Assembly: GCF_003334385.1 (NCBI RefSeq)
Contig: NZ_QOWN01000171.1
DNA length: 524 nt
Source: Escherichia coli
GTDB taxonomy: Bacteria; Pseudomonadota; Gammaproteobacteria; Enterobacterales; Enterobacteriaceae
Strand: one strand, 5' to 3'
The notes under the pieces are model-generated. The model saw nothing but the letters and a program-made list of their open reading frames with translations, did no database searches and was not told the DNA's origin. The position numbers and the translations under genes are program-made. Positions 1 through 524 of this stretch are shown piece by piece; positions within the stretch are counted from its first letter, which is position 1; the number at the start of each line of letters is the position of its first letter.

Positions 1-1
1 T

Positions 2-25
2 CCGCGATCACTGCGGGATTTTTTT
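2..25 (+). terminator. Putative intrinsic-terminator-like element: short GC hairpin followed by a T7 tract, oriented for plus-strand (antisense/convergent) transcription. Truncated by the window edge, so highly tentative.
   Basis: Plus strand 2..16 is ccgcg-atcac-tgcgg: pairs 2-16, 3-15, 4-14, 5-13 are Watson-Crick and 6-12 is a G-U wobble, with a 5-nt loop. It is followed by 'ga' and then ttttttt (19..25). The stem is short and may extend past the window. On the minus strand the same region reads A-run then hairpin, which is not terminator polarity for the gpI-like transcript. Confidence 0.25.
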
Positions 26-32
26 ATTCTTT

Positions 33-524
33 TTACCCCTGCCGCCCGATAACCACGACCTTTCCGCCCCCGCCTTCATCACGGGTACTGATGTCCTGGG
101 ATATACGGCGGGAGCCAACCAGCATTTCCCCGTAAGGCACCGGCATCGGGTTACCCTGGGCAATCATGTTGTCCAGTGACGAAAAATACGTGTTCTGTCT
201 GCCGTTATCCGTTGCGCGGTAATCCGGTGTTTTTGCCTTCGGGGCCAGCATCTGGGCCACACCACCCAGAATCATGCTGGCTCCAAGTGAAAACAGCATC
301 GTGGTGGCAGAAAAACCACCGGCTGCCAGGGCTGAACCCCATAACGCCATCGAGGCACCGGCAGTGAGGAAAGAGCCCACGATGGCTGCCGCCCCCAGCA
401 CAATCTGCAGTCCACCCTTTCCGGCCCCGGCCAGTCGCGGCACAATGTGGATGACCGTTCCCTCACCCAGCTGTTCGTGAAGACGGGCGTACACCGCCTC
501 CGGTGCCGTGTCATCACCGGCAAT
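33..524 (-). CDS. Tail tip assembly protein I, phage lambda gpI family; partial, with the N-terminal part beyond the window edge at 524. TAA stop at 33..35.
   Basis: The 153-aa ORF on the minus strand (33..494) reads ...GTVIHIVPRLAGAGKGGLQIVLGAAAIVGSFLTAGA...LFSLGASMILGGVAQMLAPKAKTP...DNGRQNTYFSSLDNMIAQGN...YGEMLVGSR...DEGGGGKVVVIGRQG. This is collinear with, and closely similar to, the C-terminal roughly two-thirds of lambda tail assembly protein I as I recall it (...GAVIHIVPRVAGAKSGG.FQIVLGAAAIAGSF...LFSLGASMVLGGVAQMLAPKARTP...DNGKQNTYFSSLDNMVAQGN...YGEMRVGSR...VVVIGR). I translated codons 495..524 by hand: the frame stays open (...IAGDDTAPEA-V-YARLHEQL), and the 'M' at 492..494 is a GTG (plus-strand cac), so the true start is upstream of the window. 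The stop at 33..35 (plus tta = TAA on minus) was checked by hand. Confidence 0.9.
   Translation of the reverse strand: MAGDDTAPEAVYARLHEQLGEGTVIHIVPRLAGAGKGGLQIVLGAAAIVGSFLTAGASMALWGSALAAGGFSATTMLFSLGASMILGGVAQMLAPKAKTPDYRATDNGRQNTYFSSLDNMIAQGNPMPVPYGEMLVGSRRISQDISTRDEGGGGKVVVIGRQG

Follow-up and report, generated by a model that had tools for sequence, protein, structure and literature searches.

The 524-nucleotide stretch of Escherichia coli DNA analyzed here, referred to as the window, carries what its sequence identifies as the C-terminal portion of gene I of a lambdoid prophage. The long uncharged segment that it encodes corresponds to a pair of hydrophobic helices already known from the tail tip protein gpI of phage lambda, and the window is one more copy of that element, not a new kind of element. 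We consider it virtually certain that the segment is the gpI-family helix pair and that this pair is buried in the tail tip, with burial and location in this copy resting on homology to the lambda and F-type pyocin structures. [quoted passage not shown] Taken as a whole, this explanation seems to us probable. As for its separate parts, insertion of the helices into the outer membrane is the reading that we favor by a small measure, while removal of the Ub-like domain by K is a possibility to which we give slightly less than even weight.

The only long open reading frame (ORF) of the window lies on the minus strand (33..524) and is open at the 524 end. It is a partial coding sequence for a lambdoid tail tip protein I (a gpI/TAPI homologue), comprising its last 163 codons and the stop codon (33-35), while the first 63 codons lie past base 524; the 163-residue translation ends in KVVVIGRQG. 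In a phmmer search of the PDB sequences, the fragment matched the lambda gpI chains (8iyk_I/8iyl/8k35/8xcg) with E = 2e-64; 9E7M was also among the lambda gpI cryo-EM entries matched, and two F-pyocin “putative tail assembly proteins” matched more weakly. The protein also matches PHROG 32, “tail assembly protein”, with E = 9e-79. Pfam recognizes only its N-terminal domain, and a search of NCBIfam returned no matching family. By megablast, the window matches 151 phage records at 90-97% identity, annotated as tail (tip) assembly protein I, most of which belong to Stx-converting and other lambdoid phages. The stretch is present in 1910 of 5426 complete E. coli genomes, about a third, with up to 11 copies per genome; none of these genomes contains an exact match, the best one being 99.0% identical. 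Two further plus-strand ORFs that cross the segment (176-367 and 274-480) were rejected as spurious, being antisense to a well-supported gene.

The window ends short of the neighboring genes, and the gene neighborhood was read from two relatives 97-99% identical to it, phage PhiR5_1 (L001) and an E. coli prophage (L002). In both, the gene order is H-M-L-K-I-J-lom, H being the tape measure gene, with I located between K and J; this is the tail-tip block of lambda. To number the residues, we rebuilt a full-length protein of 226 amino acids from the N-terminus of the 97-99% identical relatives and the window's own C-terminal 163 residues, in which window residue i is full-length residue i+63. A full-length relative aligns with lambda gpI over residues 1-224 (E = 4e-95) and is collinear with it from residue 1. 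Judged by its sequence, the protein belongs to the lambda gpI/TAPI family by each feature that could be tested.

Concerning the start of gene I, both PGAP and the PhiR5_1 record begin it at a GTG, which yields a protein of 193 amino acids with the first strand of the Ub-like domain cut away. An ATG located 33 codons upstream yields 226 amino acids, collinear with lambda gpI from residue 1 (6612 versus 6711 in PhiR5_1, 5614 versus 5713 in the prophage). With this start, genes K and I share about 100 nt, as they do in the annotation of lambda and of phage YYZ-2008. The GTG start, and with it the shorter protein, is probably an annotation error. Relatives of much greater length also exist (295-432 amino acids; P0004, P0008, P0045, P0046, P0054, and P0077), with the I-like part at either end. 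Two further PHROG families also match, namely PHROG 28576, whose I-like part occupies positions 193-393 of 399, and PHROG 31 (central fibre J), at positions 151-276. Iyer et al. 2006 mentioned fusions of K with I and of I with J, and these matches are probably such fusions.

The protein begins with a domain of the MoaD/ThiS-type beta-grasp fold, of which the window carries only the last ~34 residues (411..524, minus strand), ending in a Gly-rich tail, VPRLAGAGKGG. This assignment relies on Pfam, AF2, and Foldseek: PF06805 (Lambda_tail_I) covers residues 15-97 of the rebuilt protein (E = 2.4e-16), AF2, run with an alignment of 61 sequences, models the domain with a pLDDT of 95-98, and Foldseek relates it to MoaD, SAMP1, and ThiS (TM 0.65-0.74). 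The domain ends in IVP92-RLA-G96-AGK-G100-G101, where the conserved G96 (window G33) is encoded at 426-428 and the di-glycine G100-G101 (window G37-G38) at 411-416, both on the minus strand, and the hydrophobic segment begins at residue 102. The first helix, H1 (LQIVLGAAAIVGSFLTAGASMAL), is encoded at 342..410 (window residues 39-61, full-length 102-124). An uncharged connector (WGSALAAGGFSATT), variable in the alignment, follows at 300..341 (window 62-75, full-length 125-138), and the second helix, H2 (MLFSLGASMILGGVAQMLAP), at 240..299 (window 76-95, full-length 139-158). Both helices were assigned from hydropathy, AF2, and the literature. The remaining 36..239 (window residues 96-163) encodes, also on the minus strand, the C-terminal “plug” and beta-strand region, aligned to residues 159-223 of lambda gpI; the equivalent of the lambda plug itself (residues 159-175) lies at about bases 183-233.

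The initial annotation had suggested predicting the structure of the protein alone. The two helices do appear in the AF2 model (residues 101-130 and 135-156); the confidence is low to moderate, with a pLDDT of 52-73. In the same monomer model, the C-terminal 70 residues are without regular structure (pLDDT 45-56). A Foldseek search of the model against the PDB found matches for the Ub-like domain only, and none for the hairpin or the C-terminal part; the search missed the experimental gpI chains, since the monomer model lacks structure in those regions. The C-terminal 68 residues (36-239, minus strand) are as conserved as the rest of the protein despite this low pLDDT, and the unstructured prediction would be consistent with folding that takes place only in the assembled tip, through beta-sheet augmentation with gpJ.

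Translated from the minus strand, bases 410..240 give exactly the 57-residue stretch quoted in the initial annotation, LQIVLGAAAIVGSFLTAGASMALWGSALAAGGFSATTMLFSLGASMILGGVAQMLAP (window residues 39-95). It had been described as nearly uncharged and dominated by small and aliphatic side chains, and the description is accurate: the stretch contains no D, E, K, R, or H, and G, A, and S make up 49% of it. The charge-free run extends over 59 residues, bounded by K36 and K96, while 25% of the residues outside it are charged; when the 163-residue translation was shuffled 200,000 times, the longest charge-free run averaged 21 residues, and runs of at least 59 were obtained with P = 7.5e-5. The 19-residue Kyte-Doolittle mean shows two peaks, of 1.85 (residues 41-59) and 1.66 (residues 76-94), both above the threshold of 1.6 that was used for transmembrane (TM)-like stretches, with a dip to 0.9 between them. 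Two hydrophobic stretches are thus present. Its hydrophobicity is marginal, not strong. The best 19-mers reach -2.7 and -3.9 kcal/mol on the Wimley-White octanol scale, a crude sum on the biological scale of Hessa gives a marginal +1.2 to +2.9 kcal/mol, and only 56% of the homologues reach the Kyte-Doolittle value of 1.6 in the H2 half. Two further possibilities were considered and rejected. The helices are not amphipathic, the hydrophobic moment being low throughout (0.06-0.27), and an internal duplication relating H1 to H2, which both carry LGAxxIxG with an invariant glycine, gave an unremarkable profile self-comparison (offset 37, z = 0.84). No DNA repeats were found beneath the segment.

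To analyze conservation, a search of 1.84 billion cluster representatives returned 3223 relatives at E <= 1e-3, and 61 near-full-length homologues, 30-69% identical to the query, were aligned. Charged residues make up 1.5% of the segment in these homologues, compared to 24% of the Ub-like domain and 16% of the C-terminal part; the value is 1.1% in H1 and 0.9% in the connector, and columns 104 to 157 are essentially all charge-free. Three glycines are invariant, G107 in H1 and G144 and G151 in H2, and in H2 L156 and Q154 are conserved at 88% and 69%; in the tail of the Ub-like domain, P92 is conserved at 100%, G96 at 97%, and G101 at 96%. The column entropy is 1.9 in H1 and 1.8 in H2, versus 2.2 and 2.1 in the flanking globular parts. 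The connector, with an occupancy of 0.2-0.6 and a column entropy of 2.7, varies in both length and sequence, and charge stays absent from it. At the codon level, comparison of the segment with phage YYZ-2008 gave 12 synonymous versus 1 non-synonymous changes (dN/dS 0.03) and comparison with lambda a dN/dS of 0.19, the informative comparisons spanning 0.03-0.2. The segment is under purifying selection, and 42 of its 55 compared residues (76%) are identical to lambda gpI; the earlier claim of conservation with gpI under functional constraint is borne out by these values and by the invariant glycines.

An alternative version of the end of H1 and the connector was observed in phage cdtI (L006, gene 497-1144), where it reads ...AVAWWNPVGWLGAAAVSGMY..., and also in representatives P0021, P0022, P0024, and P0126. 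This version is 10 residues shorter, contains a Trp-rich Asn-Pro turn (WWNP), and is still uncharged; in cdtI it is joined to otherwise lambda-like flanks, and the segment has a dN/dS of 0.47. The sequences suggest a mosaic exchange within the hairpin.

The protein to which the window is compared appears in the literature and databases as tail tip assembly protein I, “insertion protein”, “baseplate hub protein”, TAPI, or TIPI_LAMBD, with structures under PDB 8IYK, 8IYL, 8K35, 8XCG, and 9E7M. Its Ub-like domain was identified by Iyer, Burroughs and Aravind in 2006, who predicted that the JAB domain of the neighboring K frees this domain at a C-terminal glycine, and who considered TAPI absent from the mature tail (PMC1779556). 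Goulet et al. 2020 obtained two TM helices in gpI with TMHMM, at residues 68-91 and 96-118 of a 190-residue version, equivalent to 101-124 and 129-151 of the 223-residue gpI (PMC7291167); these are the hydrophobic segment of the window. Xiao et al. 2023 detected gpI in virions by mass spectrometry and cryo-EM and resolved residues 135-223 of a gpI trimer, which forms a tripod in the tip lumen, supports the C-terminal coiled coil of gpH, and plugs the tube (PMC10721106). They flagged the hydrophobic stretch 137-GILFSLGASMVLGGVA-152, which is resolved in their structure and is the equivalent of H2, as a possible membrane-interacting element. Their virion mass spectrometry is uninformative on the N-terminus of gpI, with a single peptide and 9.9% coverage. 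In the closed state reported by Ge and Wang 2024, gpI is resolved from residue 101 and includes H1, H2, the plug (159-175), and beta-strands, while in the LamB-bound open state it is visible only from residue 167 onward; H1 and H2, called TM by TMHMM, were proposed to insert into the outer membrane (PMC11101478). The plug and the beta-sheet augmentation of gpI with gpJ are described in both studies (PMC11101478, PMC10721106). The Ur-lambda study of 2025 resolved residues 134-222, confirmed the complex of gpI with the gpH C-terminus, and repeated the insertion proposal (PMC12617516). H1 (101-133) is thus resolved in just one of three independent lambda reconstructions (PMC11101478 versus PMC10721106 and PMC12617516). 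Two F-type pyocin preprints of 2026 describe a homologue with the same architecture; one of them reports that its N-terminal region is proteolytically removed in mature particles, and the visible helices of PA0640 encircle the C-terminal coiled coil of the tape measure. The F7 pyocin homologue also has two predicted TM helices (PMC12874032).

These studies bear directly on what the initial annotation had supposed. It asked whether gpI density is present in the cryo-EM models of the lambda tail tip, and the published models contain it, as a trimer in the lumen. It placed the part that follows the Ub-like domain either in a membrane or buried in the tail-tip complex; burial agrees with the three gpI copies seen in the tip lumen (PMC10721106, PMC12617516, PMC11101478), and insertion is a proposal drawn from the lost density of H1 and H2 and from TMHMM. 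In the literature searched, gpI was found in a membrane as a proposal only, and no observation of it there was found (PMC11101478, PMC12617516). The view of gpI as a soluble assembly chaperone, against which the segment had been judged unusual, is outdated, gpI being a virion component.

The main rival to outer-membrane insertion is that the helices are a packing module only, which is buried in the lumen, clasps the C-terminus of the tape measure, holds the plug, and is expelled on the trigger without ever being embedded in a membrane. The buried state is the sole one directly observed, and the hydrophobicity is marginal for a true TM helix. The small conserved residues, moreover, lie at heptad-like spacings (107/114/121, 144/151, and 146/153, a spacing of 7 being the commonest, with 5 pairs), which suggests tight helix-helix packing, although this signal consists of few positions and is statistically weak. 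However, helices packed in a lumen usually keep a polar surface, whereas columns 104-157 are free of charge across the family; the connector is not conserved for contacts and yet is uncharged; and the density of H1 and H2 is lost as the tip reaches the membrane (PMC11101478). On balance, we regard packing alone as unlikely, while giving it more weight than any other rival. The same two TMHMM helices (PMC7291167, PMC11101478, PMC12874032) might instead indicate an integral anchor in the inner membrane of the producing cell, with gpI inserted co-translationally and tips assembled at the membrane. This is very improbable: the tails of lambda are put together as soluble particles, and the final location of gpI is the tip lumen, the estimates of insertion free energy are marginal or unfavorable, a folded soluble domain precedes the segment, and no membrane localization of gpI was found in the literature searched.

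The remaining two readings concern the composition of the segment, and we give both hardly any credence. That glycine-zipper or GxxxG motifs drive oligomerization and pore formation was implicit in the “many small-xxx-small spacings” noted at the outset, and 13 such pairs do exist in the segment. Nevertheless, shuffles of the same 57 residues yield 12.6 +/- 1.9 (P = 0.51), GxxxG occurs 0 times versus 1.2 expected, zipper-like patterns occur 2 times versus 2.0, and the mean z-score of small-xxx-small pairs over the 61 homologues is -0.15. Spacings of 1 to 8 between small residues are all equally common in the segment. The argument from spacings is a by-product of composition, and the sequence gives it no support. 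The other reading is that of Iyer et al. 2006, who described the segment as a glycine-rich low-complexity flexible linker (PMC1779556), a structureless connection between the Ub-like and C-terminal domains. It agrees with the high content of Gly, Ala, and Ser, with the variable length and sequence of the central 14 residues, and with the modest AF2 confidence. Against it, the conservation of H1 and H2 equals or exceeds that of the globular domains on either side, and the two helices contain the three invariant glycines; the dN/dS of the segment is as low as that of the C-terminal domain, the helices are seen by cryo-EM and predicted by AF2, and aliphatic residues are no less prominent than the small ones (mean Kyte-Doolittle value of 1.33). 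The linker reading is already largely refuted.

[quoted passage not shown] As in the published lambda and F-pyocin structures, three copies of the protein would sit inside the tail-tip cone, where the helices would touch the C-terminal coiled coil of the tape measure and the plug downstream of them would close the tube. Binding to LamB would open the plug and release H1 and H2, the density of which is lost at this step in lambda in vitro. [quoted passage not shown] The absence of charge in divergent homologues, on every face and in the variable connector as well, argues for exposure to an apolar environment. Before assembly, the Ub-like domain may keep the hydrophobic hairpin in solution up to its enclosure in the tip, after which the domain would be cut at G96 or G101; the JAB domain of the K product is the probable protease.

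This last step can be compared with the K protein of the E. coli prophage (L002 5611-6354, minus strand, adjoining I), which matches Prok-JAB (E = 9e-15) and NlpC/P60 (E = 3e-13). Its JAMM motif is intact, with E19 and H67-S-H69-P-x7-S78-xx-D81 (HSHP-x7-S-xx-D), and C121 (DCYTLF) and H188 (NHAAIY), identified by eye from the translation, are candidate catalytic residues of the NlpC/P60 domain. The predicted domains and the intact JAMM motif fit the proposal of 2006 that K processes the Ub-like domain of I, and the lambda closed-state model starts exactly at the di-glycine. With more reserve than for processing by K as such, we put forward a tentative reading in which the Ub-like domain is a cleavable, built-in solubility chaperone. 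Enclosure of the hairpin in the tip would be followed by a cut at the conserved G96 or G101, made by the JAB domain of gpK, so that mature gpI would start with H1; after the trigger, three hairpins would form a conduit or an anchor in the outer membrane for the tape measure protein and DNA. The pieces of this reading are known separately, from the 2006 prediction (PMC1779556), the 2026 F-pyocin preprint, and the lambda density that begins at residue 101 (PMC11101478).

Compared with lambda gpI, the protein is collinear throughout, with the same succession of Ub-like domain, GG, H1-connector-H2, plug, and C-terminal strands, and with the same K-I-J order. Unlike lambda gpI, it has a deletion of one residue after the GG, an insertion of two residues in the connector, and a C-terminus longer by two residues (QG). 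At the nucleotide level, the identity to lambda is ~70%, compared to 90-97% to Stx-phage/PPompW-like sequences; the window therefore belongs to a different lambdoid lineage, Stx-phage/PPompW-like. The tip plug protein (THIP) of F-type pyocins (PA0640 and its F7 homologue; PDB 25VF chain 9 and 9L9P chain A) is a homologue, with E = 1e-13 and 1e-20, and shares the motifs GG-[LF]-Q-x-VLGAA and GASM-x-LGGV-x-QML-x-P. Like gpI, it plugs the tip lumen as a trimer, and its helices surround the C-terminus of the tape measure; two TM helices are predicted in it, and its N-terminal region is missing from mature particles. In contrast, its connector is 8-13 residues shorter, and F-pyocins are tailocins, which kill and inject no DNA. 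The plug domain of T5 pb3, likened to gpI by position and role, occupies the same place in the tip as a tube-closing tripod, with a proposed outer membrane contact after opening (PMC10721106); it is a domain within one large protein and not a separate gene product, and it lacks a Ub-like domain. Systems that pair a MoaD/ThiS/SAMP-type Ub-like protein with JAB (JAMM) peptidases share the fold found upstream of the segment, the conserved C-terminal glycines, and the intact JAMM motif of K. Unlike in those systems, the Ub-like domain, instead of being a free modifier, is here fused to the hydrophobic hairpin that follows it, and cleavage by K is a prediction (PMC1779556).

A further likeness, by character, is that between the hydrophobic hairpin of the pore-forming colicins and the segment studied here, both Ala/Gly-rich and charge-free. 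The colicin hairpin, of ~40 residues, is shielded within a protein until its release into a membrane. The two are not known to be homologous, and in the colicins the shield is formed by eight amphipathic helices of the same domain and not by the lumen of a virion.

The sequences behind gene I also differ from those of lambda, in which the spacer between I and J is 60 nt long. In four relatives it measures 240-345 nt and is AT-rich (L001, 5791-6030; L002, 4689-5032; L004; and L005). Just past the stop codon, gene I is followed by an A7 run and then by a hairpin, CCCGCAG-N10-16-CTGCGGG; read on the plus strand, the order is hairpin and T7. The window edge cuts this feature, which occupies 1..27 of the plus strand, antisense to gene I, and is not part of the protein feature; the full CCCGCAG...CTGCGGG stem is found in L001 (about 5985-6035), L002 (about 4985-5035), L004, and L005. 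From its sequence, it resembles an intrinsic terminator, for transcription in the direction opposite to the tail operon; on the sense strand, the hairpin past the stop codon folds no better than shuffles (z = -0.6). A second hairpin with a T-run, in the sense orientation (CAGGCAyCCTCCGGGGTGCCTG TCGTTTTTG), stands just before J in three of the four relatives, and only two of the four have a small ORF of 21-28 amino acids in the spacer. A scan of the spacer against Rfam gave nothing near the gathering scores. The spacer could be a moron or a small RNA unit.

What the family-wide comparison adds to the known helix pair is modest: the absence of charge is conserved, three glycines are invariant, and the length of the connector is free. 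The property that the family conserves is the lack of charge itself, and not any small-xxx-small motif. The passage of lambda-type phages across the outer membrane, once LamB has been bound, is a long-standing question, and the hydrophobic hairpin of gpI is the leading current candidate for the element that inserts into this membrane. The window contributes another, strongly constrained copy of a gene carried by about a third of the complete genomes of E. coli.
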